From assembly GCA_011605725.1 (NCBI GenBank), contig JAAOZP010000009.1:11228-75227 (forward strand): a DNA stretch of 64,000 bases, given 5' to 3'. Source of the stretch: Nitrososphaerota archaeon. Its GTDB lineage: Archaea; Thermoproteota; EX4484-205; JAAOZP01. The position numbers and the translations under genes are program-made. Positions 1 to 61,865 of this stretch are shown piece after piece. Positions within the stretch are counted from its first letter, which is position 1, and each line of letters starts with the position of its first letter. Below the pieces are notes generated by a model. The model was given only the letters and a program-made list of their open reading frames with translations, had not been told where the DNA came from and did no database searches.

Positions 1-3000
1 GCTAGTTGCAAGGAGCTCAGCCTGCTCCTCTTCACAAACACGACTTTCTGGGTTAGGCTTCGTAAGGATGAAAGGCTTGTGGCCGAGCTCTTCATGCCGA
101 GGGTTCTAAGCCTCCCATTCCCGTTCTCCCTGCAGTGGTGGCGCGGCTTCGCCCTTGGCCTCATCAATAGGAGCCAGAGGATAATGGTGAACATTATGAT
201 GCTCAGCATGGTTGCGATGGTTCCGAGAGAACTGATGCCAGTCATAGCGGTTGCACTAGGTTTCATGAAGGCGTGCCAAGTCTACAACCAGAGGGGCGAG
301 ATCTTCAACGCAACCATGGCGTTGGGGAACCTGATGAGCATGGGACTCATATACCGCGGCATGGCTGACGGCTATAGGCTTCAGAATAAGAATGGTTTCG
401 CAGCCGTGTGCAACAACCTTTCTCAAACATTCCTGGAGAAAGCCAGGGAGGTTGCCAGCGACCTTGGCCTCAGGCTAATCTTGGATGTTTCCCTAGAGGA
501 CTTTAAGGTAGCCTTAGGGTTTAGGAGGGCGAGCGAGTTTGAGCAGGGTTATGCTGCGGGCAGAATCGTAGGCGCGATGGTTGAGGCAGCATCCTACGCA
601 GCCACCTACGCAACAATCTACCACGAGTTTTCAACAGCCAGGGACATGCTTAACGCAGCGGGGCAAGCCGGAGAATTCTCCGCGGCAGAAGTGTTGAAGA
701 GGTTTGGGCAGGGGCTCTACGCGTGGATAACCCCCGCGATATGGGACCTCGCCGAAACAGGGATAAAACTCGGAGTGTGGGTTAAGGGCAAACTCAGCCT
801 GCCTGATGTTTCAAAGCTCATCCTGGCAGACCGTTTCAGCAACGAATTCGGCGAGACTGTTGGAAAAGCATTCCGGAGCCTCCCGGACGGAGGGGAGCCT
901 GAGGATATTGCGAAAGGGGTTTCAAACATTGTCGACAAGGCTACTCTCGACAGTGATGTTCCTGAAAGCGTTGGGTCAAGAATACTTGACATCCTGAGCA
1001 GAATCAGCAGGGAGTATGTTGGTGAAAAAGACTGGGGGGAGAAGTCTTACCGGACCCTGAAAATCATGGTTGAAGCATGGAAGAGGGTTAGCGAGCTTGA
1101 AGCGTGGAAGAAAGGGGGTGAGCCTGGGAAGCTTCTGATGGACTGGATGGACGGTACTAGTAACGGGAAAGGTGGAGAGATGGTTACTGTTCTAAGGGGG
1201 CTGGCTCAGCTGGGTGACGGTGAGCTTGAAAGCGTAGGAAGAGCTTTAACCAGGGATGGAGACGATTCTGAGAATGGGCTTATGCTTTTCAAAACTTACC
1301 TCGGCGCTAGGGATGATTATGGCAGGGAGATTGCTGACGCCTTCTTAAACAGCATCTCTAAGCATCCTGAGCTGTTAAGCCTCTGGAGCGGAGCCGTGGA
1401 GGACAGGGCCGCAATATTCATCGGAGCATCCCATGAACAGGATAGGATATCTTTACCGGAGGGTATTCGCGAGAGTGTTTACCGTGTCATCATACAGGAT
1501 TCCGAAGGCGAGAACATCCTGATAGACGACTTCAGAAGGATCGGCAGCGGGCAGGAGACTATCCGCTTCTCCTCCGAGGATACTGCCGGCAGGATAAGGA
1601 AGGGCCAAGAATACCTGGTTATTCTTAAGACTGCAACCCCAGGGGACTTTCTCGAGAAATACCCGTCGAGGTTCGTTAAGGCTACTGGGGGAAACGCCTA
1701 CTTGATGGATACTGAGAAAAGCAGGGTCGTTGAAGGACTGGTTGGGGAGCTGGACGAGTATGGAGGCTTCGCCTTCATCAGGTTTATGGTTACAGATGCT
1801 GACGGAAAACAGGTTGAGCTCAGGCTAACCCAGGGAGGGAGGCTGATGCTGATCTCCGGCGAAGGGAGAACCATGATAGGCGGGGTTGAGTTGAAAACCG
1901 TTTGGGACGATGCCGGAGGCGAGGTGGCTAGGCTCCTGTTCCTGCAGGAGGAGGGCCTAGACAGGTACGGCGGGATAATTGTTCTAAACAGGAGGCTTCC
2001 CTTGAGACCCGTGTTGTTCCTGGGCAACGAGGAGCACATTATAGAGATAGAGCTAGGCCAGAAATACCTTGACGTAAGCGGGATGCTTAAGAGAATCATA
2101 GGCGGCGAAGAATATTCGAGGCTCAGCGGAGAAATGAGCAGCGGGGACGCGGTTCTTGGAGTAGCTTACCTTAAGCAGGATGGCGGAGTAGATTCAGCGT
2201 GGACCCGGAGCGCTGACGCGGAGTTCAAGATTAAGGAGGCGGAGGATGTGCTCGGCCTAATTATTGTAAGGAAGAACGGTCTTAGCGCGGTGAGCCTCGA
2301 CGAGAGTGTTAGAGCAGAGCTTTCCGGCGAATCCCTGAAGTTCCATGGTGTCAAGGGGATGAGCGGGGGCGCCGCATTCAGGGTGAGTGAAGCCCGCTTC
2401 AGGGAGCTCAGCGGGTATGGTCCGATTCTCGAGATTACTCTGCCGAGCGGCGAGGCTATTCTGTTCCGCGTTGACGTGGGTGGAGACGGTAAAACAGTAT
2501 ACTCGAAGCTAGCCTTAGCAGTGGAACGGTATGCGCCTGAGATAAACCCGGTTGAATACTACGGCGAGCTCAAGTTTAAACTGAGCGAGGGTGGCCAAAC
2601 TTTCGAGTATACTCTAAGGGACTTGATGGTCGTCGAGTATGAGGACAGCAGGGGCATTCATAGAAGCGTAGTTGGCTTAAGTGAGCCTCTTCCGGATAAA
2701 GTATTGAAGGAACCTCAGCATGTTGCTGCGAAGCTATTTACTAAGTCATTTTTGGAGAAGCAGGGATACAATATTTTAGAAGAAGAAAAACATCTTGAAT
2801 GGTGGGATGAGGATGTGTTCTTCGATTTCCACGTGGAAACACCCGATATGAAAATAGCGATAGTTGAATGCAAGCATGGTGACGAAACTGTTAGTAAGAT
2901 AAAGCAGGCGGATAAGTATTTTGAAATTGCTAGGGGAAAAGGCTGGAAACTGATTTACAGCTTCCTGCATGCTCCCCAGACCCCTCAGGCCGAGGAATTG

Positions 3001-3081
3001 CTTAATCACTTGGTCGAGCTTATGAGGCAGTACCCAGACACAGTAGAGGTTTTTATAAGTGGAGAGAAATATGGAGGGTAG
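1..3081 (+). CDS. Large hypothetical protein (>1000 aa, 5'-partial). No recognisable domains except a C-terminal PD-(D/E)xK restriction-endonuclease-like motif. No Walker A motif.
   Basis: The ORF is open from nt 1 in frame with the listed 79..3081 ORF, so the gene probably begins upstream of the window. C-terminal segment VFFDFHVETPDMKIAIVECKHG shows a hydrophobic-D ... hydrophobic-ExK pattern with about 15 aa spacing, typical of the PD-(D/E)xK nuclease fold. GGDGKT is not a canonical P-loop. Confidence 0.6.
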   Translation, partial: ASCKELSLLLFTNTTFWVRLRKDERLVAELFMPRVLSLPFPFSLQWWRGFALGLINRSQRIMVNIMMLSMVAMVPRELMPVIAVALGFMKACQVYNQRGEIFNATMALGNLMSMGLIYRGMADGYRLQNKNGFAAVCNNLSQTFLEKAREVASDLGLRLILDVSLEDFKVALGFRRASEFEQGYAAGRIVGAMVEAASYAATYATIYHEFSTARDMLNAAGQAGEFSAAEVLKRFGQGLYAWITPAIWDLAETGIKLGVWVKGKLSLPDVSKLILADRFSNEFGETVGKAFRSLPDGGEPEDIAKGVSNIVDKATLDSDVPESVGSRILDILSRISREYVGEKDWGEKSYRTLKIMVEAWKRVSELEAWKKGGEPGKLLMDWMDGTSNGKGGEMVTVLRGLAQLGDGELESVGRALTRDGDDSENGLMLFKTYLGARDDYGREIADAFLNSISKHPELLSLWSGAVEDRAAIFIGASHEQDRISLPEGIRESVYRVIIQDSEGENILIDDFRRIGSGQETIRFSSEDTAGRIRKGQEYLVILKTATPGDFLEKYPSRFVKATGGNAYLMDTEKSRVVEGLVGELDEYGGFAFIRFMVTDADGKQVELRLTQGGRLMLISGEGRTMIGGVELKTVWDDAGGEVARLLFLQEEGLDRYGGIIVLNRRLPLRPVLFLGNEEHIIEIELGQKYLDVSGMLKRIIGGEEYSRLSGEMSSGDAVLGVAYLKQDGGVDSAWTRSADAEFKIKEAEDVLGLIIVRKNGLSAVSLDESVRAELSGESLKFHGVKGMSGGAAFRVSEARFRELSGYGPILEITLPSGEAILFRVDVGGDGKTVYSKLALAVERYAPEINPVEYYGELKFKLSEGGQTFEYTLRDLMVVEYEDSRGIHRSVVGLSEPLPDKVLKEPQHVAAKLFTKSFLEKQGYNILEEEKHLEWWDEDVFFDFHVETPDMKIAIVECKHGDETVSKIKQADKYFEIARGKGWKLIYSFLHAPQTPQAEELLNHLVELMRQYPDTVEVFISGEKYGG

Positions 3082-14690: not shown

Positions 14691-15128
14691 GTGAAGCCCT
14701 GTCCCGGGAAGTATGACTATCCTGAGCACACTTCAGACGTGTATGTTCAAGCATACGGGAGAAGCCTGGAGGAGGCTTTCGAGAACGCTGCACTAGGATT
14801 AACGGGGGTCGTAACAGACGTTTCAAGAATAAGGCCTGAGCAGACTTTTGAGGAGACTGTTGAAGCCGAGGATTTGCAGATGCTTCTCTACAAGTGGCTG
14901 GAAGCAATACTTGTCAGGCTTGACGCTGAGCAAATGGTTTTCTCAGTCTTCAACGTGAAGATAGAGAGGGAGAACGGTAAGTATGTTCTCAAAGCCGTGA
15001 TGAAGGGTGAAAGATTCAATCCTGAATTGCATACGAGTGGGACGCAGGTGAAGGCAGTTACTCTTCACGATATGGAGATTGATAAATCACCGTCTGGAGC
15101 CAGGGTTAAGGTATTGCTAGACATATAG
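14691..15128 (+). CDS. Archease
   Basis: YDYPEHTSDVYVQAYGRSLEEAFENAALGL matches the archease N-terminal signature. Confidence 0.85.
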   Translation: MKPCPGKYDYPEHTSDVYVQAYGRSLEEAFENAALGLTGVVTDVSRIRPEQTFEETVEAEDLQMLLYKWLEAILVRLDAEQMVFSVFNVKIERENGKYVLKAVMKGERFNPELHTSGTQVKAVTLHDMEIDKSPSGARVKVLLDI

Positions 15129-15682
15129 GGTCTGACCTTAAGCGCGCGTAGCCAGCTATGCGCTACAGCTGCGTTTTAAAACTAAACTTTATTTCTAATG
15201 CTTTACTGTTTTATTTAAGAAAAAAGTTTAACGTTGGGCTTCCTACATAAGTCTGTCAAGTATATAGTAGAATGCTGTCGAAAACACTTCTATCAATAGT
15301 ACTGCGAGTATGGAGCCTGATATTCGCCCGTCATAATGTAAGTTATGAGTAAAGCAACGGGGTCAACAACTAGCCTGTATACTAACGTTTTTACGAGGCT
15401 TTTCTTTCGTGAACGGTGAATTGGCGGGGCATACTGCACCACCAGGCTTGCACCGATAATTCAAAGCATATGCTTAAAAGCTTTTACATTTTATATTATT
15501 GTTCATCCTAAATGATAACATCGCTTCCCGCAACCGTAACATCCTAGTTAACGTTCACCCTATCTTTACGCTTGAAACGGTGAAAGTTTTCTACAGCAGG
15601 AAGCCTTATACTGCCGTGAGCATTTATAGCGCATAGTCTTCATCTACACGGGTCCACGCATGTCTGCTTGATTCGTGTCGGC

Positions 15683-15913
15683 TTAACCACCAGGTATCTG
15701 AGACATGTATCTCTTAGCAGCCATCCTAACGTCTTCCGCGCGAATCGTTTTCCTCTTAGCGAAGACTGCGAGCTGTGCCGCGTCTCTGGCGATTCTCGTA
15801 CCTATGTCTTCAAGTATTCTAGATAGTTCTTCAGCAGCTTCTTCGCTTACTCTTTCTCCTCCGGATTTCCGGAGAATCCTGTACATCGCCGCTAGGGACA
15901 ATTCCTCCGACAT
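15683..15913 (-). CDS. Archaeal histone (HMf-like histone fold)
   Basis: LPLAAMYRILRKSGGERVSEEAAEELSRILEDIGTRIARDAAQLAVFAKRKTIRAEDVRMAA aligns along its full length with archaeal histone folds. Confidence 0.85.
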   Translation of the reverse strand: MSEELSLAAMYRILRKSGGERVSEEAAEELSRILEDIGTRIARDAAQLAVFAKRKTIRAEDVRMAAKRYMSQIPGG

Positions 15914-16246
15914 TTAAATTACCCTCATTTGGGTTGAATCAACTGATTAATAAGTCTTTTTAGGGGAAAAGGTTAAATTTTTTGACTAAAATCGATAAAG
16001 TCTTAAGAATCAGCCTAATCCCAGCTGAAAAGCTGTTTTAATGGGGTTTTTAAGCACCTCGGGTGCTGGGAAACCCGAGCATCACGCTTAAAAAGCTTTC
16101 GGCTCCGCAAAGGTTTCAGCCGTATGCGAAACAGACTGGACAATTGTTCCTGCTCATAGGGACGCTTGGACACCGTTAGCTGACTTTTAAGCCTCAGCCT
16201 GAATTTTCCGGCAGCATTGAAAACAATCGTAAAAGGCTGTGTTTAA

Positions 16247-16480
16247 ACGAACAAGGGTAAAGATTTATGTTGCACCTCTTGGGCATGGCTGAAGGCGACT
16301 GAAAGAGTACTGGTGTTCGCAGCACACCCGGATGACGAGCTGGTGGAAGCAGGAGGCACGATATGCAGACTGCGCAGGGAGGATTGTGCAGTCAGGGTTA
16401 TGCTTTTCTCAAGAGGGGGAGGAGGCCTTGCGGCCAGTGGAACCTGGAAGCCTTTAGTCAGCGTTGCATGGAGGCATTAG
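16247..16480 (+). pseudogene. Short fragment of a PIG-L/LmbE-family deacetylase (N-terminal AHPDDE motif only)
   Basis: In-frame stretch RVLVFAAHPDDELVEAGGTICRL, then a stop at 16478-16480. No ATG is present and only about 50 codons are open. Confidence 0.4.
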
Positions 16481-16635
16481 CAGATATTCACGGCGGCCGT
16501 CTTGACAGCGTTTAGACTCGTCTAAACGGGTGGAAAGCAGCATTTTCCCCGGCTTAGCGTCACGGCCATTATCAAGGGGAGAATACTTTTTTAAGGAAGA
16601 AAACGATGAACTCCGTTTACGAAGGGTAGTGGAGA

Positions 16636-19909: not shown

Positions 19910-20002
19910 GCTCCGGTGGTGTAGCCCGGTAAGCATACCGGCCTTTCGAGTACATGAGTTGAAGACAGCCGGGGGTCGCGGGTTCAAATCCCGCCCGGAG
20001 CA
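19910..20002 (+). tRNA. tRNA-Glu (anticodon UUC) with an 18-nt intron at canonical position 37/38 (about 19949..19966)
   Basis: Exons give GCTCCGGTGGTGTAGCCCGGTAAGCATACCGGCCTTTCGA|GCCGGGGGTCGCGGGTTCAAATCCCGCCCGGAGCA, a 75-nt cloverleaf very similar to known archaeal tRNA-Glu. The intron contains GAAG, which can pair with the anticodon. Confidence 0.8.
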
Positions 20003-20244
20003 CTATTAACTTGAAATCCGTATAATGCTTGGGTCAAGTTTTGTTCCGAAGCGCTGCAAGTTTAACCTATAAATGAATTTGCAAATGGTGTTCCTGTTTG
20101 CACCGGTAGGTTAGCATGCGAATTATTAGCGTGCGTAATGTTGCAGCGTCCTCCGGGAGACATTATTCTGACAATCCGCCAAGAGGCTCGCGCGCTATAC
20201 TTAAACATTAAAAATCCTAAGCAGTCAATCGGCGGGCTGCTCGT

Positions 20245-38937: not shown

Positions 38938-39354
38938 TTGGACATGTCCATCGTTCAGACATATAGGGGCAAGACTCTCGAGGAGCTGAACAGCCTTTCG
39001 ATGAACGAGCTGATGAGGCTTCTCCCAGCCAGGATTAGGAGAAGCCTTAAGAGAGGACTTCACCCTGAGACTCGGAAGCTCCTCGAGAAGATCAGGAAGG
39101 TTAAGGCTGAGATGGCTCGAACCGGGGTTCAGCCCAGGAGGATAAGAACTCACAGGAGGGATATGCCTATTCTCCCGGAGATGGTTGGGTTAACCATTGA
39201 GGTCCATAACGGTAAGGACTTCATACCTGTCGAAATCACTCTGGATAAGGTGGGCCACTACTTGGGTGAGTTTGCAATAACCAACAAGAGGGTTGTTCAC
39301 GGTAAGCCTGGAGTCGGAGCTAGCAAGGCTTCTACTTACGTGCCTTTGAAGTAA
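38938..39354 (+). CDS. rps19: 30S ribosomal protein S19 (uS19)
   Basis: [33 protein letters not shown] is the uS19 core. Confidence 0.9.
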
Positions 39355-39387
39355 GAAAAATAAAAAGGATTAGGGAAAGAATTGGCC

Positions 39388-39618
39388 TTACTGCTTCTTA
39401 GGCTGCTCCTTCCAAACATACGTTATTCTATCGTCTATCACCAGGTATTCTCCACTGTCCTTGACTGATACCATGGGTTTCTTCAATATTGTAGCAATCT
39501 TTCTAAGTCCTTCAAGCGACTTGACGTGTGCAACGTATCCTTCAGGAGTCTTCTCAAGCTTATCCACGTTCACTGCTCTACGTATGCTGGGCTCGGCTTC
39601 AGCCGCCTCCTTGCTCAT
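39388..39618 (-). CDS. Hypothetical 76-aa protein encoded antisense within the rps19-rpl22 spacer
   Basis: Clean 76-aa ORF with balanced composition in a 367-nt gap that is normally absent between these two r-protein genes. No recognisable motif. Confidence 0.35.
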   Translation of the reverse strand: MSKEAAEAEPSIRRAVNVDKLEKTPEGYVAHVKSLEGLRKIATILKKPMVSVKDSGEYLVIDDRITYVWKEQPKKQ

Positions 39619-39721
39619 TTTCTATCGCTAAAGCTGCTTTATCCTAGGATTTAAGCATTGCCTATAACGGGCAAAATATTTAATAATTGGTGCATATTCC
39701 TGTCCTGCTTCCACAGCCAAG

Positions 39722-40198
39722 GTGTTGAGTTTGCCAAGCTTTAAGTACAGTTTGGTTGAGGTGGACAGGGCCCGTTCGGCTAAGGCCAGCCTTAGAGAGG
39801 TTAGAGTATCGCCTAAACACTCGGTTGAGCTGGCCAGGTTTATAAAGGGTTTAAGGATCCCGGAGGCCAGGGAAAGGCTGGAGGCGGTTGTGGAGAAAAA
39901 GCTCCCTGTCCCGTTTAAAAGGTACAGGAAGAAGGTTCCTCATAGAAGGGGGGTTTTAAAAGCTGACTCCGGAAGGTATCCTGTTAAAGCAGCCAGGTTC
40001 TTACTAAGGCTGCTGGCGCAGCTTGAGGCTAATGCTGAGTTTAAAGGATTATCGCCGGAGAGGATGAGGATAACCGGTGTCGTTGTCCATCGTGGGAGAA
40101 AGCTGAAAAGATATACGCCTAGAGCCTTCGGAAGGGCTACACCGAGGTTTGAAACCCTTACTCACGTGGAGGCCTTGGCTGTGGAGGAGGCTGGTTGA
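39722..40198 (+). CDS. rpl22: 50S ribosomal protein L22 (uL22)
   Basis: AKASLREVRVSPKHSVELARFIKG plus the beta-hairpin region. Confidence 0.9.
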   Translation: MLSLPSFKYSLVEVDRARSAKASLREVRVSPKHSVELARFIKGLRIPEARERLEAVVEKKLPVPFKRYRKKVPHRRGVLKADSGRYPVKAARFLLRLLAQLEANAEFKGLSPERMRITGVVVHRGRKLKRYTPRAFGRATPRFETLTHVEALAVEEAG

Positions 40199-40199
40199 A

Positions 40200-40850
40200 A
40201 TGTCTGCTAGGCGGAAAACGATTTTCTACAAGAGGGTTCTTGAATTCGGAAAGCTGCATCAGAAGATCGACGACTTTCTAAAAGAGTACTTGAAGGAAGC
40301 TGGTTACAATGGTGTTAGACTGTTGAACGTCCCAATGGGTCTGGTGGTTACAATATACACTAGTAAGCCGGGTGCCGTCATAGGGCCGGATGGGAGAAAC
40401 ATAAGGGAGCTTCAAAACATGCTTCAGAAAAATTTTGGTCTTGAGAATCCTCAGGTTAATGTGGCTGAAGTTGAGAACCCTGATCTTGAGCCTCAACTGG
40501 TTGCGCAAATGATATGCAGGGCTTTAGAGCGGGGTGTTAAATACCGTAGGGCTGCTAGGGTTGCTCTCCGCAGGATAGTTGCAGCCGGTGCCGTTGGTTG
40601 CGAGATAAGGATAGCCGGTAAGCTGGCGACTGACAGAAGCAGGTTTGAAAAGTTTACATATGGTTATCTGCCTGCGGCTGGAGACCCAGCTATGAAGTAT
40701 GTTAAAACCGGGAAGGCGAGTGTGCTTTTGCCTCAGGGCCTAATAGGGGTCAAGGTTAAGATTCTCTGTAAAGCATCCTTCCCGGATGAGGTTCAGATAA
40801 TAGGGGTTCAGAAGGAGGCTGCTGAAGTTGGCGAGGCTAAAGGCGAGTGA
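40200..40850 (+). CDS. rps3: 30S ribosomal protein S3 (uS3)
   Basis: KH domain and the S3 C-terminal domain. Start set at MSARRK after the L22 stop; the ORF track extends it to 40149. Confidence 0.9.
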   Translation: MSARRKTIFYKRVLEFGKLHQKIDDFLKEYLKEAGYNGVRLLNVPMGLVVTIYTSKPGAVIGPDGRNIRELQNMLQKNFGLENPQVNVAEVENPDLEPQLVAQMICRALERGVKYRRAARVALRRIVAAGAVGCEIRIAGKLATDRSRFEKFTYGYLPAAGDPAMKYVKTGKASVLLPQGLIGVKVKILCKASFPDEVQIIGVQKEAAEVGEAKGE

Positions 40851-50394: not shown

Positions 50395-50688
50395 ATGCCT
50401 AGAGAAGTGTTACGACCAGGTAGAATATGCGTGATAACCCGTGGCAGGGATAGGGGGAAGAAATGCGTCGTAGTGGGAAGCATCGATGATTCCAGAGTTC
50501 TCGTAACAGGCCCCAAGGAGTTGAACGGTGTTAAGAGGGGTAGAAAGAATATTCTACACCTTCTGCCTCTTGCTGAAAACGTCAGAATAAGGGCGAACTC
50601 TAAAGATGAGACTGTTCTGGCAGCCCTGGAGAAAAGCGGCTTGAAAGAGTTCATGAGGGAGATTATGAGGATTGAGGACGCTTGTTGA
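50395..50688 (+). CDS. rpl14e: 50S ribosomal protein L14e
   Basis: KOW-like [18 protein letters not shown]. Confidence 0.85.
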
Positions 50689-51671
50689 TTTCGTAAGGCT
50701 TCGGACGCTGGTTAAGGAGGAGTGTGAAACCGACGAGAAATACGGAGAGTACCCGGATAGGAGGAGCATTTCCAGGCTTCTGCAGCTGGGGATTGTGAAC
50801 CTGGATAAGCCTCCGGGGCCCTCGAGCCACGACGTGTCTTCAACAGTTAAAAAGATTCTTAACGTTGAGAAGGCTGGGCACGCCGGGACCCTTGAAGCAA
50901 TGGGGAGATCCCGGTGTATCCGGCGTCCTACCGGTATGTCTTAACGACGCCACTAAAACAATAGAATATCTTCACATGATGAGTAAAGAGTATGTGGGAG
51001 TATGCGAGGTCCACGGGGATTTCGAAGAGAAGGCTTTGCAAAGATGGGTTGAGAAGATGACTGGCCCCATATACCAACGTCCTCCAGTGAAATCATCCGT
51101 TAAAAGGTCGTTGCGTCGGAGAATTATTGTAAGGTTTACGGTTGAGGATGTTTCCGACAGGAGGTTCGTTTTCAGAGTTGTAACTGAACCAGGCACGTAT
51201 GTTAGGAAGCTTCTCCACGACCTTGGTCTGCTTCTAGGAACTGGTGCGCATATGGTTGAGCTTAGAAGAGTTAGAGACGGTTTTCTAGACGAGGATTCTT
51301 CAACGACCCTTCTAGAGCTGTACGCTGCTTGGCATCTCTACTCTGAGAAGGGTGATGAAACTCTTGTCAGAAGGTTTGTCAAGCCTGTTGAAGAGGCTTT
51401 CAAAGGTTTCCCTTCAGTATACATTAAGGATAGCGCGGTTGCAGCAGTTGCCCACGGAGCTCCACTCGCGTCCCGGGGTGTTTCAAAAATAGACCACCCG
51501 CTTTCCAAGGGAGACGTGGTATGCATAAAAACCCTGAAGGGGGAATGCGTGGGCTTCGGTACTCTAACCATGAGTTCAGACGAGGTTCTGCAGGCTAAGA
51601 GCGGGATAGTTGTTTCAGTAGAGAGGGTTGTGATGGATAGGAACCTCTATCCAAAGATGTGGGGAGGATAA
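50672..51671 (+). CDS. cbf5: tRNA/rRNA pseudouridine synthase Cbf5, interrupted by a 13-nt BHB-type mRNA intron
   Basis: The N-terminal ORF (50672..50944) and C-terminal ORF (50865..51671) are in different frames. Removing 50895..50907 restores ...[25 protein letters not shown]..., the TruB/Cbf5 catalytic motif. A PUA domain is at the C-terminus. Confidence 0.8.
50895..50907 (+). other. 13-nt intron in cbf5 mRNA with relaxed bulge-helix-bulge (hBH) geometry
   Basis: Outer helix CCGGGA(50883-88)/TCCCGG(50909-14). Central 4-bp helix CCCT(50889-92)/GGGG(50902-05). Both splice sites lie 2 nt beyond the central helix (tg|a and ag|a). Confidence 0.65.
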
Positions 51672-51759
51672 TAGTCTGTTAACCTACCGACTTCTATCCT
51701 CATGTTCAGTACCTTGGCTGACAAAGCTTAAAAACATGTTTCCGTGAAAAATCCTGAAT

Positions 51760-51873
51760 GCCGAGGTGCCCGAACCTGGCTAAGGGGCAAGCCTGGAGCA
51801 TGAAACAGTTAAAGCAGTTTCAGAAAGCTTGTGGCCCTCATGGGCCTTAGGGGTTCAAATCCCCTCCTCGGCG
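51760..51873 (+). tRNA. tRNA-Ser (anticodon GGA), type II, with a 27-nt intron at 37/38 (about 51799..51825)
   Basis: Acceptor GCCGAGG/CCTCGGC, 3-bp D stem, anticodon stem CAAGC/GCTTG enclosing CTGGAG + intron + A. Long variable arm TGGCCCTCATGGGCC, T arm GGGGTTCAAATCCCC, discriminator G. Confidence 0.75.
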
Positions 51874-52321
51874 TTTAAATATTTATATCATTTTTTAAAT
51901 GTGTTAAATCAAGAGTGCTTTAAATAGAGAAGCATAAGATATTTGAGGCGATGTATGAAAAGCCTGAATAATACTTCGGAGGCGGACTAACACTGTGTCA
52001 TCGCTGCCATCATCTCCAGGCCACCGGTCGGATGCTGGTTGGCAGCCGTATCCAGCAAGATTGTAAGCTACAAGTAATCTGTATGGGGAGTTTAAGATTT
52101 ATTGCTGATAACAAGGATTGCAGGTCAGCTTATCACACTTACCAGGGTGGGAAACGGAGGAGGTGGAGAGCGCTTTTAAACAGGTTTCCCCACGCCTCAT
52201 TAGGAGTAGAATGCTGTTTCAGCATCCGAGCGAGAAATCTTCAAGTTTAACCATGTTTCTCAAGGCTGTTCAGGCAATAATGTTTATAACCGGCTCCCGG
52301 GAAGCCTCATTAAGCCTGCTT

Positions 52322-52807: not shown

Positions 52808-53299
52808 ATGGGTGATCCCCGTAAGATTAGAAGCAAAATCCTGCATCCGAAGCATCCCTGGGTCAAGGAGCGTCTGACAGAAGAGCTTGTACTCGTAGGG
52901 GAGTACGGGTTAAGAAACAAGAGAGAGCTTTGGAGAGCCGCATCCTTCCTGAGAGGCATAAGGGCTTCAGCCCGTTCCTACTTGAGCCTGACGGGTGAGG
53001 AAAGGGTTAAGAGGGAGTCGGAACTCATTTCGAGACTACACAGGCTCGGCCTAGTAAGCAGGGACGCGAAGCTTGACGATGTTCTCTCCCTGACTGTTTC
53101 AAACGTTCTTGAAAGAAGGCTTCAGACGATAGTTTACAGGAAGGGTTTTGCGAAGACTATTCACAGCGCTAGGCAAGCGATAGTTCACGGCAAGATTATG
53201 ATAGGTGATCAGGTTGTAAGGTCTCCCAGCTACTTTGTCACGAGAGACGAGGAGCCTCTTGTAAGGGTTAAGACAGTTGAGGAGAATAAGGCTGTGTAA
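52808..53299 (+). CDS. rps4: 30S ribosomal protein S4 (uS4)
   Basis: GDPRKIRSKILHPKHPW... fits uS4. Confidence 0.9.
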   Translation: MGDPRKIRSKILHPKHPWVKERLTEELVLVGEYGLRNKRELWRAASFLRGIRASARSYLSLTGEERVKRESELISRLHRLGLVSRDAKLDDVLSLTVSNVLERRLQTIVYRKGFAKTIHSARQAIVHGKIMIGDQVVRSPSYFVTRDEEPLVRVKTVEENKAV

Positions 53300-53518: not shown

Positions 53519-53914
53519 CTAGAACCTTCTGCCTCTTCTTCCTCCAGGTTTCCTCGTCCCGTCTGTTGGAATAGGCGTAACGTCTTCTATCGCGATTATC
53601 CTTAACCCGGCTCTTGTTAATGCTCTTATAGCTGCCTGAGCCCCCTGCCCAGGGGTTCTCGACTTTATGCCTCCTGGAGCCCTAACCCTCACCTTAATGC
53701 TTGTTATTCCAATCTTCTTCAAGGCTCCAGCCACAGTGTTCGCTGCCATCATGGCCCCGTATGGGCTTCCTCCTAAACGATCCGCCTTAACATGCTGGCC
53801 GGCTGTGGATACTGCAAGGGTTGACGAGCCGCTTGGATCCGTGGCATGCACTATAGTATTGTTGCTGGAGGAGTATATTCGTACGACTGCATACTTACCT
53901 TGCTCAGTGCTCAC
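53519..53914 (-). CDS. rps11: 30S ribosomal protein S11 (uS11), encoded on the opposite strand to its usual operon partners
   Basis: [23 protein letters not shown]...[19 protein letters not shown] fits uS11. A GTG start at 53914 gives 131 aa. The ORF track extends it to 54022. Confidence 0.75.
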
Positions 53915-54028
53915 GCAGCAATCCTGCTTAAGGAGGTTAATAAGCGTTCTCCAAGCGGCTTCTTCAACAGTCCCAGCCTGTGGAAAGCTAACCCTTAAAT
54001 ACCTTCCCCGGAAAAATAGCACGTTAAC

Positions 54029-54715
54029 ATGGATGTAAAGATACTTAGGCTGAGCGACGAGTATCTAGAGGCTAGGCTGGAAGGATGCTCAGAGGCGCTT
54101 GTAAACGCGATTAGAAGAGCTATTCTTGAAGAGGTTCCTACGCTGGCGATTCACGAAGTATTCATATTTGAAAACTCCAGCCCCATGTTCGACGAGGTTC
54201 TTTCCAACAGGCTTGGCCTAATACCCTTAAGAACCCCGCCTGGGAAATACCTGCCGATGGATTCTCAGGAATGCCTGCAGGGCTCTAGTGAGAAGTGTTT
54301 CACATCGCTTAGCATAGATGTTTCCGCCGGCGACTCTCCTTTGACGGTCTACTCTAAGCATCTCGTCTGCAGAGATGAAGAGGTCTACCCTGTCTACAGC
54401 AACATTCCTATAACCAGGCTTCCCCCAGGCGGGAAGCTTAGGCTGGAGGCAATAGCTAGGCTTGGAAGGGGTAAGATGCATGCTAAATGGCAGCCAGCCT
54501 CCCTGGCTACGTACAGCTTCACAGACTCCCCGGATACGTTCATTTTCAAGCTTGAATCAACGGGTTCTCTGCCATCAATAGAGGTCTTCAGACAGGCTCT
54601 GGATATTCTGAGAGATAAGTTTAAAACGCTTCTGGATTCTCTCACGCTTCCTGAGGTTGAAGAGAAGCGTGGCGGCGAGGAGAGTGTTGCTTTCGGTGAG
54701 GAAGGCGGCAGGTGA
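54029..54715 (+). CDS. rpoD: DNA-directed RNA polymerase subunit D (Rpo3)
   Basis: 228 aa; its N-terminal region ([20 protein letters not shown]...[16 protein letters not shown]) resembles RpoD. Position upstream of rpl18e and rpl13. Confidence 0.85.
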
Positions 54716-58679: not shown

Positions 58680-61600
58680 TTATGAAGGTGGGGGAGGCGG
58701 CGGTGGAAGTGGTTTAGGCTTTCTTTCAAGCTTAAGTGCAACGAGAACCACTATGGCTGAAACCACTATGATTATAATGCTCAAGATCAGGAACACCTGA
58801 GTGTAATTCTCGTCATAGAGTGCTGTGAGCGTTAAAACAGTCTGTTCACCCGTCATCTGAACAACCACCTCACTATCCTTGGTTTCAACCGCTCCAGTCC
58901 AACGGTTAAACCGATACTTGCCTCCAAGCATTCCGAGAAAGCCTTTCATCGGCTCCTCCAGCGGTGCCCTAACCCTTACCATGTCGCCCTCCTCGTATGT
59001 TCCCGACCCGTTGATCTTCAAACCTACGTTAGAATCAACCGTCATAGTATACGTCTTAATCTGCTCCGGTTTAACGATCTGAACATGCACAATCTTAACA
59101 GCCGTGTTCACGCCATCCGTCGCCTTTATCTGTATTTCATAATCTCCCTCCGGAAACTCGCTTCCCCCAAGCCTTGCGCTAGAAGGATCCATGTATACGC
59201 GCTCTACGAATTCGTCCTCGCTTATCGTTGGGGCGCCCAAGGTTATCCTGTCCTTAGTTATCCTGTTGGCCAGCATCCTCCAGGTCTCCTCACCCCTCCT
59301 CCTTATGAGGACAGTATACCACAGTTGATCACCGTCTGCATCCGTGCCCCTCCAGATTATAGTGTAGTTACGACCAGTACCCAACTTCTTTCCCTCGGGA
59401 GGATAAACGATCTCGAGGACTGGTGCATGGGTTGAAACACTCCTAGTGAACCATACTTTTCCATCAGGGCCAGTAAGCTCTATCCTCCCAAGATTGTCTA
59501 ACCATGGTACTATTCTCACGAACGGGATCGCATCCGTAGGCTTATATCCTCCAGGGTCAGTAAAGTAGTAGAAAGACATGTTATAGGGATACCTTTTGAA
59601 AACAGTACCGTTCTTAAGGTATAGCGTCAGCGAGAAGTTCCCAGTCCCCTCGGGCTCTAGATACGTCCAGCTGTAGTTGTAAAGCCTCTGAAACGGCCTT
59701 CCCAACACCGTTCCGTTCCTGCATATTATCATTGAGATGAGAAGGGCCTCTGGGTCATCCCCGCTGACGCCGGCGACAATCCTCCAAGAGGACCAAGCCC
59801 AGTAACCATCTTTGGCTCCTCCAGCATGATCCATTATGTCGCGCGCTGCTACATAACTTGGGTTAGGCATTCTGATAAAGAATGGTCCAAGCGCGCTATA
59901 GATATCGGTGTTCGCACTGAACTCATAATACTTGAATATCTTTACTATTCCTCCTTTGAACTCGTCGAAATAAACGCATTCCTCAGGCACAACAATAGCA
60001 TACCCATCGTAGATATCGTAAAGCATACCGAAGGTGTGAGAAAGCTCGTGCGCAACCGTTGGGAAGTAGAGATTTTTCGTATGCGTACTATTAACCGCCT
60101 CATCGTACTCTACGAACGCCACATGGAAGCCCTGGTCCCAAAAAGGGCGTGATTCCGCGCCTGGAGAAGCCCACTGCGGCCAGGCATACACTATTCCGAC
60201 ATTGTTGCCGCCTATATCACCATTGGGAACTATGGCTACAACCCTTCCAAACCCTTCCTCCGCAGCCTCCTCAGCCGCAGTGTCAGCGTTCCACCACCCG
60301 ATGTCGCCACTATAGTACAATTCGGTCACGGGGTATGTGCCGTAATAATCTTTAAAGATCCCGCTTAGATATATCTGATAGCGATATACAGGGCGTTGTC
60401 CCCACGGCGTAGATATCCAGTATGCCGGCGTGGCGATTTCCCTAAGGTATTCTGAACGTTGGTCGTGTGTGAACCTACGATCCTCCTCCCAAAGCACCAC
60501 TTTTATACGACGAGCGTAATCATACTCTATCGGATAGATTCCAACCCGAAAGGTCTCGGATACGGTGGTGATGCTTCCCTCATCCCATGTTACTTTCCTA
60601 TGCGGATCGAAGTCAACCCGTACTTGAACGTCTCCGACGGAACTCGGCCTGGGAAGGAAACCGCTCCCCTGGCCCACCTCCTCCATCAGGTAGAGGATGC
60701 CAGTCTCACCGGCTGCGGTAGGGTTGAGCGTTGCCCTACCGTAATAGACCCAATGCGGAGGGTCACCCTCCTTCCTAAGGCCAGCGTAATGCCAATACTC
60801 TACTCCGATGATTGCTGACTCCGCCGAGGGGTCCTTCCAACTGTTTACATTTCCGAGGTCAAGCCTGTATTCCACGTCCATAGGGGAATTGTATTCAAGC
60901 CTGTATTCTAGCTTGAATATCGTCTGCTTACCGGCTATGAGTTTTGACCCGTGCTGCGTCAAAGGTTTCAGGCTGAGTATCTGAAGCTTCGGTATGTTGT
61001 AATAGAAACCTAAGTGGAGCGTGGTGGATTTCTCAACGCCGGACTGCGAGACGCCTCTCACCGTTATAATGTAAGCCTTCACCACGCCTCCGGGCATCGT
61101 AAGGCTTCTCCAATTGACGGTTGCATCCACGGTGAAGCCTAGGCTGAGAGTGAGCTCCGTTTCCAGCCACAGGTTCTCCCGAATCAGGCTTGTAGGGGCT
61201 CTGATACCTGTGCCCTCTACCCACATGGTGACGCCTTCGGGAAGACCACTCTGTTCAAGCCTTATCATCTCGCTGTCGCCGCTTATCTTCCTGAGCCTTA
61301 TTTCATAGCCTGTTTTCGAGACAGTGCTCTCCCCTAGGGCTAGCGGAGTGAGATCGATTTGCAGAGGGAAGCGCCCGATAACTTCAAGAGTATAATCTAT
61401 TTTTTGAGGGGGTGGCGGCGGGGTTGTTGAACCTTTAATCGTTAGCATGTAGTTCTTAGACACTGTCCCTAATCCGTCAAGATAGCTGTCACGAGCCTCG
61501 ACTGTGAAATAGTAGGTTATCGTGGTTCCTGGTTGAGCATTACGCGGGGTGCCAGACAGCGTGAGCGTAGGTCCTCTCATGCTTGAGGGTGATATACCCA

Positions 61601-61865
61601 TCCCTGGAGGAGTATCCCCATATATTCTCCACTGCGTGTATGGCTTATGGTTATCAGGAAAATCTGTGCTGAACACCACGGAGTAAGGTTTCCCCTCTTC
61701 CCCGTCTGGAAGCACGTAGTAAGTCTTACCGCCAATAAGTCTCGTCCCAACTGGCAAAGGGTTTGAGTATACGGCGTATGGGCTGCACAGGACTGTTGTG
61801 AAAGATGTTGAGACGATAAGTAGCAACAATAAGACGCCCTTATTCAAGTTAAGATTCAATCTCAT
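58680..61865 (-). CDS. Large secreted/cell-surface protein with HExxH zinc-metallopeptidase motif, C-terminal TM anchor and poly-Pro tail
   Basis: Signal-peptide-like N-terminus (LLLLLIVSTSFTTVLC). AHELSHTFGMLYDIYDG resembles M6/InhA-type HExxHxxGxxDxYD. C-terminal TM VFLILSIIIIVVSAIVVLVALKL, then KPKPLPPPPPPPS. Confidence 0.6.
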   Translation of the reverse strand: MRLNLNLNKGVLLLLLIVSTSFTTVLCSPYAVYSNPLPVGTRLIGGKTYYVLPDGEEGKPYSVVFSTDFPDNHKPYTQWRIYGDTPPGMGISPSSMRGPTLTLSGTPRNAQPGTTITYYFTVEARDSYLDGLGTVSKNYMLTIKGSTTPPPPPQKIDYTLEVIGRFPLQIDLTPLALGESTVSKTGYEIRLRKISGDSEMIRLEQSGLPEGVTMWVEGTGIRAPTSLIRENLWLETELTLSLGFTVDATVNWRSLTMPGGVVKAYIITVRGVSQSGVEKSTTLHLGFYYNIPKLQILSLKPLTQHGSKLIAGKQTIFKLEYRLEYNSPMDVEYRLDLGNVNSWKDPSAESAIIGVEYWHYAGLRKEGDPPHWVYYGRATLNPTAAGETGILYLMEEVGQGSGFLPRPSSVGDVQVRVDFDPHRKVTWDEGSITTVSETFRVGIYPIEYDYARRIKVVLWEEDRRFTHDQRSEYLREIATPAYWISTPWGQRPVYRYQIYLSGIFKDYYGTYPVTELYYSGDIGWWNADTAAEEAAEEGFGRVVAIVPNGDIGGNNVGIVYAWPQWASPGAESRPFWDQGFHVAFVEYDEAVNSTHTKNLYFPTVAHELSHTFGMLYDIYDGYAIVVPEECVYFDEFKGGIVKIFKYYEFSANTDIYSALGPFFIRMPNPSYVAARDIMDHAGGAKDGYWAWSSWRIVAGVSGDDPEALLISMIICRNGTVLGRPFQRLYNYSWTYLEPEGTGNFSLTLYLKNGTVFKRYPYNMSFYYFTDPGGYKPTDAIPFVRIVPWLDNLGRIELTGPDGKVWFTRSVSTHAPVLEIVYPPEGKKLGTGRNYTIIWRGTDADGDQLWYTVLIRRRGEETWRMLANRITKDRITLGAPTISEDEFVERVYMDPSSARLGGSEFPEGDYEIQIKATDGVNTAVKIVHVQIVKPEQIKTYTMTVDSNVGLKINGSGTYEEGDMVRVRAPLEEPMKGFLGMLGGKYRFNRWTGAVETKDSEVVVQMTGEQTVLTLTALYDENYTQVFLILSIIIIVVSAIVVLVALKLERKPKPLPPPPPPPS

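Follow-up and report, generated by a model that had tools for sequence, protein, structure and literature searches.

Cbf5, the H/ACA pseudouridine synthase, is encoded in the stretch of archaeal DNA analysed here (hereafter the window; 64 kb of contig JAAOZP010000009.1, labelled Nitrososphaerota archaeon) by a gene whose reading frame breaks inside the codon of the catalytic aspartate, and the question raised by this locus is how such a gene can give rise to an intact enzyme. The cbf5 locus (50672..51671, + strand) is spread over two reading frames and hosts a 13-nucleotide (nt) insert. Frame A opens at the TTG at 50672, reads ...KAGHAGTL, runs through the insert and meets a stop at 50944; frame B carries the remainder of Cbf5 up to the TAA at 51669-51671. 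Removal of the insert, AAGCAATGGGGAG (50895..50907, +), restores the catalytic motif GHAGTL|DPGVSG, and joining 50672-50894 to 50908-51671 gives 987 nt that read through 328 codons without interruption up to the stop codon. Exon 1 (50672..50894, +) extends from the TTG start to the Leu74 codon and the first base (G) of the Asp75 codon and encodes the DKCLD domain and the start of TruB_N, and exon 2 (50908..51671, +) extends from the last two bases (AT) of the Asp75 codon to the TAA stop. The gene is interrupted inside the catalytic Asp75 codon (G|AT). From sequence comparison, and by analogy with the genes of Sulfolobus and Aeropyrum, we conclude that the cbf5 pre-mRNA very probably carries a 13-nt archaeal bulge-helix-bulge (BHB) intron, placed at the same position and in the same phase as the Sulfolobus/Aeropyrum cbf5 intron, and that it would be spliced by EndA and RtcB.

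The joined 328-aa product could be aligned over residues 8-326 with the crystallised Cbf5 proteins of P. abyssi and P. furiosus (E 1e-93 to 1e-90), its catalytic segment falling on the Pyrococcus segment aghggtlDpkvsgvlpv, and it contains the full set of DKCLD, TruB_N, TruB_C_2 and PUA domains, which identifies the host gene as cbf5. At its 5' end, exon 1 overlaps the 3' end of an upstream L14e-like gene (50395-50688). The original prediction, made on this stretch from its letters, had proposed that a 13-nt insert splits the catalytic Asp codon (G|AT), and both the joined product and 15 relatives bear this out. It had further held that excision of 50895..50907 is the only one that joins the two fragments; in the window alone, excision of 50894-50906 yields an identical product, owing to the flanking G's, and it is the relatives that settle the choice in favour of 50895-50907.

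These relatives were obtained by a scan of the GTDB species-representative genomes, which gave 15 close loci (L001-L014 and L026) and, together with the window, a set of 16 sequences. They come from independent metagenome-assembled genomes (MAGs) recovered from different hot springs, and the proteins of the 16 sequences are 76-98% identical; with L004, L006 and L014 the window is colinear at 80-86% nucleotide identity. Several of the 15 loci are labelled Candidatus Brockarchaeota (De Anda et al. MAGs DRTY-6.bins.80, GD2_1, JZZ.bins.4 and QC4_43) and the others Thermoproteota or 'Nitrososphaerota'. As judged from these sequence relationships, the window organism, a hot-spring archaeon, belongs to the Brockarchaeota clade and is no classical crenarchaeote. 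Brockarchaeota form a separate phylum-level group, basal to Aigarchaeota and Thaumarchaeota (PMC8065059), and the Brockarchaeota paper mentions neither introns nor cbf5.

In all 15 relatives the N- and C-terminal tblastn segments of Cbf5 lie exactly 13 nt apart, with a +1 frame change at the same codon, so that the insert has the same length and position throughout; the TTG start codon is likewise kept in 16 of 16 clade members. The inserts of the relatives differ from that of the window at intron positions 4, 5 and 13 only, all of which are unpaired in the structure described below (4 and 5 are the N and R of a GNRA tetraloop, and 13 is a bulge residue). Position 13 is the informative one. 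The last intron base is A in four relatives (L001, L004, L009 and L013), whose DNA reads ...GGGGAAATCCC (GGGGAA-ATCCC), and in these four only the G|...|AT junction gives Asp, a +1 frameshift or an excision shifted by one base giving AAT (Asn) instead. The A at position 13 therefore fixes the junctions at 50894|50895 and 50907|50908 and removes both the frameshift and the shifted-excision alternatives.

The same set of sequences was used to ask how selection has acted on the gene. At 85 four-fold degenerate sites the encoded amino acid is conserved among the 16 sequences, and 79 of them (93%) vary at the third base. Because amino acids are conserved while 93% of the four-fold sites vary, we regard cbf5 as being under strong purifying selection in both exons. 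The six invariant sites are not scattered: four of them belong to Gly72 (GGG), Thr73 (ACC), Leu74 (CUU) and Pro76 (CCC), i.e. to the very codons from which the central helix of the proposed splicing motif and the first pairs of its outer helix are formed (hypergeometric P about 7e-6). Asp75 is always GAU, its U pairing with the A of the Thr codon, and the synonymous sites of Ala71 and Gly77 show C/U variation only, by which G-C or G-U pairing is kept. This synonymous-site test was used in place of covariation, which is uninformative within the clade, the shuffle control being degenerate and each variable pair varying on one side only. The pattern shows selection on the synonymous sites of the motif, and the cbf5 intron site offers a clean case of bases on which two demands fall at once, that of encoding a catalytic motif and that of directing RNA processing.

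Folding of 50870-50930 gave a minimum free energy (MFE) structure identical to the centroid, and the RNAalifold consensus of the 16 homologous sequences agrees with it. On the + strand, the outer helix h pairs 50880..50888 in exon 1 (the codons for His-Ala-Gly and the A of the Thr codon) with 50909..50917 in exon 2 (the U of the Asp codon, followed by the codons for Pro and Gly and by bases 1 and 2 of the codon for Val), and the fold extends it by 5-6 bp between 50873-50878 and 50919-50924. This 9-bp helix with its extension is paired in 96% of cells in 15 distinct sequences, among which the only changes are from G-C to G-U or U-G. The central helix H consists of 4 bp between CCCU of exon 1 (50889..50892, +) and GGGG of the intron (50902-50905) and is invariant in 16 of 16 sequences. 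The 5' splice site, U G | A (50893..50895, +; cut at 50894|50895), lies in the free-RNA fold within a 9-nt loop (50893-50901), and the 3' splice site, A G | A (50906..50908, +; cut at 50907|50908), forms a 3-nt bulge in which 50907 is G or A in the relatives. Counting from the 3' end of either strand of the 4-bp helix, each proposed cut follows the second unpaired nucleotide and precedes the third. The original prediction had placed both cleavage sites two nucleotides past a 4-bp central helix, and the MFE, centroid and RNAalifold folds agree in recovering this arrangement. The fold is better than expected by chance (z = -3.2; none of 200 shuffles folded equally well). The exact geometry occurs once in the window, both strands considered, at the cbf5 site, about 0.3 occurrences being expected in composition-matched shuffles; the motif by itself is only mildly unlikely, and chance leaves unexplained its place in the sole register that repairs a conserved gene.

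The scan of GTDB genomes revealed inserts at the same codon and in the same phase in three further lineages, namely 16 nt in L024 (labelled Thermoproteota), 26 nt in L038 (labelled Candidatus Geoarchaeota) and 22 nt in L039 (a MAG from Guaymas). The junctions of these three loci and of the Brockarchaeota served to build a DNA pattern, which was then run against metagenomes and gave at least 120 matches (L052-L171), which are a sample and no census. Among the matches listed, 119 of 120 are a cbf5 with an intron, the introns measuring 13-38 nt, and the intron-bearing Cbf5 proteins fall into at least 20 clusters at 65% protein identity. Their lineage labels rest on the best named matches and on no phylogeny. 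The largest group among them comes from sediment metagenomes and has 18-21-nt introns; the named proteins closest to it, at ~70% identity, are of Candidatus Bathyarchaeota and are full length, which implies a patchy distribution of the intron within this group. Another group is 72% identical to a Thermofilaceae-labelled protein, introns of 13 nt recur in three further lineages (L161; L061/L079/L112), and Brockarchaeota-like loci with the 13-nt insert were also present on three separate metagenome contigs. The same CCCU/GGGG helix was found in L024, L038 and L039, in the Sulfolobales-like locus L050 and in at least 119 metagenome loci.

L050 and a further locus, L051, were reached through P0124 and P0123, obtained in a homologue search with S. 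solfataricus and A. pernix fragments derived by optical character recognition, which returned 19 short fragments and no named Sulfolobus protein. L050 shows a second cbf5 frame break downstream of its intron (880-930), probably an assembly error in this 1.4-kb contig. In L051 (1432-1473; JGI metagenome 3300041075, contig Ga0452204_043989), cbf5 lacks the Asp-codon insert and has a 42-nt in-frame insert with stop codons between NLD and KPPGP. The fold of this insert is a BHB close to the canonical form: CUGG pairs with CCAG in a helix of 4 bp, the 3-nt bulges are AUA and AAA, and GCUUGU pairs with ACAAGC in the inner helix. Cleavage predicted 2 nt 3' of the 4-bp helix would give GAU|AAA, a second cbf5 intron position that we did not find in the literature searched. 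Near 1865 the same gene is thrown out of frame by a tandem duplication of 5 nt (AACTA), which may represent an assembly error or decay.

Several observations weigh against a spliced BHB intron in the window and have to be set beside this evidence. The free-RNA model places the 5' cut site in a 9-nt loop and not in a true bulge; the proposed A-U pair that would close the inner loop is penalised by +3.1 kcal/mol, its probability in the ensemble being 0.005; and the central helix itself reaches an ensemble probability of only about 0.6. Within the clade there are no double compensatory changes, and sequence variation supports the structure only through invariant positions and wobble changes. The protein collection contained no full-length (spliced) Cbf5 above 50% identity, and a Pfam scan of 51 open reading frames (ORFs) of the window recognised neither EndA (tRNA_int_endo) nor RtcB, the only component found being archease. 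Regarding the motif, the 3' bulge AGA and the CCCU/GGGG helix are canonical BHB features and the 5' site (UG|A) is a relaxed form in the thermodynamic fold. Because the lone A-U pair, at +3.1 kcal/mol, is essentially unpopulated, the free RNA would be better described, on this folding model, as a bulge-helix-loop, i.e. a relaxed form. According to PMC5829648, relaxed motifs are cleaved only by endonucleases of the (alpha-beta)2 and epsilon2 types.

Comparison with longer introns suggests a different description of the inner part of the motif. Among 108 distinct cbf5 introns from the metagenome matches listed, the base immediately before GGGG is a possible pairing partner of nucleotide 2 in 105 (97%, versus 37.5% by chance), and the length of the inner helix scales with that of the intron: 1 bp with a 4-nt loop at 13 nt, up to 3 bp at 16 nt, mostly 4-5 bp at 20 nt, 6 bp at 22 nt and up to 10-13 bp at 32-37 nt. 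The inner element reads A-GCAA-U in the Brockarchaeota clade, where the loop also occurs as GAAA and GCGA, all of these being GNRA tetraloops; in three other lineages whose introns measure 13 nt, the closing pair is G-C in place of A-U. No intron of 11 or 12 nt was seen among the matches listed (at least 120), though the pattern permitted such lengths. From this comparison the layout of the window intron would be A (third nucleotide of the 5' bulge), A-GCAA-U (a 1-bp helix and its tetraloop, 6 nt), GGGG, and AG (the first two nucleotides of the 3' bulge), and the 13-nt intron is probably a minimal complete BHB, with a true 3-nt 5' bulge and an inner helix of one pair. Nearest-neighbour energies give the inner A-U pair no support, and we keep it as a comparative inference only. 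The motif is probably more than the hBH of the original prediction, the comparison suggesting a minimal complete BHB.

In the reaction that we propose, folding of the transcript would pair the Gly-Thr-Leu codons of exon 1 with the Asp-Pro-Gly codons of exon 2 to build the outer helix, and CCCU of the exon with GGGG of the intron to build the 4-bp central helix. EndA, the tRNA splicing endonuclease, would cut after G50894 and after G50907, and an RtcB-type ligase, aided by archease, would join the exons. Ligation would create the GAU codon for the catalytic Asp75 and bring exon 2 back in frame, yielding the 328-aa Cbf5, with a predicted spliced junction reading GGGACCCUUG|AUCCCGG; the unspliced mRNA would specify only a 90-aa fragment without the catalytic residue. 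EndA and RtcB are named as the likely agents by analogy with the known cbf5 introns, and the inner A-U/GNRA mini-hairpin would presumably form on the enzyme. To assign a regulatory role to the intron would be speculation; PMC2738675 credits Watanabe et al. with a proposal of negative regulation.

What the window holds of the processing machinery, and of its other substrates, can be summarized as follows. An archease gene is present (14691..15128, +; PF01951, E 1e-42), archease being the activator/cofactor of RtcB, the RNA ligase by which exons are joined once EndA has cut. In the 1.5 kb after it (15130-16630) there is no rtcB; this interval contains a 76-aa histone-fold gene (15683-15913, - strand) and otherwise no ORF of more than 70 aa. 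Two of the five tRNA genes in the window have introns. The tRNA-Ser(GGA) gene (51759..51874, +), located 88 nt downstream of cbf5, has a 27-nt anticodon-loop intron and was detected by ARAGORN with introns allowed, having been overlooked by Rfam at the gathering threshold and by default ARAGORN. The tRNA-Glu(UUC) gene (19910..20003, +) has an 18-nt anticodon-loop intron; its fold comprises the anticodon stem and a helix, with a bulge of 3 nt on the 3' side. The presence of intron-bearing tRNA genes indicates that the organism depends on BHB splicing and implies that an EndA exists. Further mRNA introns in the window were sought with a motif-plus-ORF-fusion screen, which ranked cbf5 first; the other matches, among them sites that do no more than join neighbouring genes in tight operons (e.g. 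50649-50694, L14e with cbf5), were treated as chance.

Among the alternatives, the one that survives best accepts that the RNA is excised and assigns the excision to machinery other than EndA/RtcB, either another structure-specific nuclease or a cleavage without religation that acts as a decay switch. The failure to find EndA or RtcB among the window ORFs scanned and the relaxed form of the 5' site speak in its favour. We nevertheless consider it very unlikely, since the geometry is exactly that which the splicing endonuclease recognises, the homologous introns of Sulfolobus and Aeropyrum are cut by this enzyme (PMC2738675), and cleavage without religation would give no active Cbf5, yet exon 2 is under strong selection.

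A programmed +1 ribosomal frameshift or bypass would dispense with excision altogether: the ribosome would read CTT GAA GCA ATG GGG, slip by one base to GAT CCC and produce a Cbf5 with EAMG before the Asp. The arithmetic allows it, 13 nt being four codons plus one, so that a +1 shift within the insert restores frame B, and in the window frame B does read GAT at 50907-50909. That codon, however, is AAT (Asn) in 4 of the 15 relatives (L001, L004, L009 and L013), where the catalytic Asp would be lost, and CAC or TAT in other lineages with an insert at the same site. Moreover, the frameshift would put four extra residues inside the invariant GTLDP motif, no slippery or shift-prone sequence is evident, and the inserts of 13-38 nt at the same site elsewhere include multiples of 3 and in-frame stops (see also PMC2738675). 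It would also leave the helix-bulge-helix geometry and the frozen synonymous sites unexplained, and we give it hardly any credence.

Equally hard to credit is a pseudogene or a sequencing or assembly artefact, in which the 13 nt would be accidental and cbf5 dead or mis-assembled. The window alone does show a frame-disrupted gene, and a sequencing error had been named with the original prediction as a possible refutation; the same 13-nt insert, though, is present in 15 independent GTDB species-representative assemblies and in the three Brockarchaeota-like metagenome loci, both exons are open and under strong purifying selection (79 of 85 four-fold sites vary), and among the homologues no intact second copy of cbf5 was found near the clade. 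Finally, a split gene, whose two polypeptides would assemble into an active enzyme without splicing, is scarcely conceivable, for although the exon-2 ORF figures in NCBI and JGI annotation as a separate protein of 230-263 aa, the GTLD catalytic motif is intact in neither ORF, the Asp is encoded in neither frame in four relatives, and the start of the exon-2 ORF varies in length among annotations. In the light of the comparative data, a spliced BHB intron is by far the best supported reading of the locus.

The published record on which this reading bears is as follows. Introns in cbf5 are known from Sulfolobales and most Desulfurococcales, none having been found in the Thermoproteales, Thaumarchaeota and Korarchaeum examined (PMC2738675), and in the published scenario the intron was gained once, by the ancestor of Desulfurococcales and Sulfolobales, with losses thereafter (PMC2738675); a 2023 review describes the intron as limited to a small group of related archaea (PMC10485636). 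The statement that cbf5 introns are known in Crenarchaeota holds for the former two orders, and its extension to Thermoproteales does not (PMC2738675, Additional file 1). Our survey suggests that the Asp-codon intron is far more widespread than published, and if it is present in Brockarchaeota, Geoarchaeota and Bathyarchaeota-like lineages, the single-gain scenario needs revision. Tentatively, and with somewhat less than even confidence, we propose that the Asp-codon intron is no innovation of the Sulfolobales/Desulfurococcales ancestor, and that it is either ancestral to a large part of Thermoproteota/TACK (Thaumarchaeota, Aigarchaeota, Crenarchaeota and Korarchaeota), with many losses, or has been repeatedly re-created; the 13-nt form would then be the minimal natural mRNA substrate of the BHB type. 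The TACK-ancestral possibility may cover Brockarchaeota, Geoarchaeota, Bathyarchaeota-like and Thermofilaceae-like lineages together with many unnamed ones. Repeated re-creation at one site is conceivable because the coding sequence GGG-ACC-CUN-GAY-CCN is already the exon half of a BHB motif. The locus gives a starting point for tracing how the only well-studied mRNA intron of archaea evolved. With its inner helix all but absent, the 13-nt intron also offers a minimal substrate from nature for defining what an archaeal splicing endonuclease needs outside tRNA.

There is also a practical consequence for annotation. Whereas it had been anticipated that automated annotation would call a pseudogene, public annotation calls the exon-2 ORF only: in the protein search, the 13 closest homologues (78-94% identity) are annotated as proteins of 230-263 aa that correspond to exon 2 alone, and the next homologues are full-length and only 50% identical. 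The public relatives are hence recorded as a 'Cbf5' of 230-263 aa that lacks the N-terminal third and the catalytic Asp. An essential, near-universal archaeal gene is in this way systematically mis-called in the clade and, according to the metagenome survey, in many uncultured lineages, which affects functional inference as well as marker-gene alignments that use Cbf5.

The neighbourhood of cbf5 in the window is the usual archaeal one, with SecY, an EMC3-like protein, cytidylate kinase, L14e, cbf5, tRNA-Ser, S13, S4, S11 and RpoD. Within it, the gene for ribosomal protein S11 (53519-54022, -) lies between those for S4 (52808-53299, +) and RpoD (54029-54715, +); the S13-S4-S11-RpoD cluster is usually co-directional in archaea, and the inversion of S11 is probably shared, the region being colinear with L014. 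Elsewhere in the window, the S10-type ribosomal protein cluster is split into L3-L4-(L23)-L2 (4433-7235, -) and S19-L22-S3 (38938-40850, +), and two long ORFs (79-3081, +, and 58680-61865, -; about 1000 and 1061 aa) gave no Pfam match at E <= 1e-5.

How the cbf5 intron of the window relates to known systems can be considered from the most distant to the closest. In eukaryotes, HAC1/XBP1 splicing likewise involves a short, non-spliceosomal mRNA intron, a structure-specific endonuclease, ligation by tRNA ligase or RtcB, and a change of frame; its endonuclease is Ire1, not EndA/TSEN, and the reaction is stress-regulated. Neither the intron nor the host gene is homologous to those studied here. 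Closer is the mRNA intron of Haloferax volcanii HVO_1309, which, as cited in PMC10485636, is cut by the splicing endonuclease at a BHB motif. Compared by description only, the two share an archaeal mRNA, a BHB motif and the splicing endonuclease, and differ in gene, in lineage (Euryarchaeota for HVO_1309) and in endonuclease architecture (alpha2 for HVO_1309). With archaeal tRNA introns (BHB or relaxed) the cbf5 intron has in common the recognition motif and the presumed enzymes, and its 13 nt lie inside their size range of 11-175 nt (PMC2738675). In contrast to them, the substrate in cbf5 is an mRNA, splicing would serve to restore a reading frame and a catalytic codon, not to shape a tRNA body, and the outer helix is made of protein-coding codons, so that RNA structure and protein constrain the same bases.

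The closest system is the cbf5 Asp-codon pre-mRNA intron itself, reportedly described by Watanabe and co-workers in 2002 and by Yoshinari and co-workers in 2006. The cbf5 introns of Sulfolobales and Desulfurococcales are 16-44 bp long and contain a BHB-like motif that the splicing endonuclease cleaves after the second bulge residue and before the third (PMC2738675, Yokobori et al. 2009), and splicing of the Sulfolobus and Aeropyrum cbf5 pre-mRNA by this enzyme was shown experimentally (PMC2738675; PMC10485636); in the window, the intron is predicted from the DNA sequence. The exact junction of the published introns was inferred from the statements of the 2009 paper, its size table and the metagenome loci that match its fragments. 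Under this definition, L074, which matches the published Stygiolobus azoricus fragment, has an insert of 22 nt, and L154 (Acidilobales-like), which matches the Acidilobus/'Caldococcus' fragments, one of 29 nt, in both cases the published size; both loci were recovered by the metagenome pattern. L050, 72% identical to the S. solfataricus fragment, reads CTA G|AGCCCCTTTAATGGGGCGGGGAG|AC CCC and adopts a canonical hBHBh' fold. The window, L050, L074 and L154 share the exon end ACCCUNG|, the intron end ...GGGGAN|AY and the phase, and these shared features argue that the window carries the known cbf5 intron. The junction sequence that they have in common points either to one origin or to one and the same constraint. 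Likeness to the intron of Sulfolobales and Desulfurococcales extends to (i) the host gene, (ii) the insertion point in the catalytic Asp codon and its phase (G|AY), (iii) the central helix CCCU/GGGG, (iv) the intron 3' end GGGGAN and (v) the rule by which the cuts are placed. The differences are that the window intron measures 13 nt against the published 16-44, that its inner helix h' has at most one A-U pair around a GNRA tetraloop, versus 3-13 bp in longer cbf5 introns, and that its host is of the Brockarchaeota clade, outside both orders. What is new, and unreported in the literature searched, is a host at phylum level, the Brockarchaeota, and a size of 13 nt, the shortest so far for this intron.

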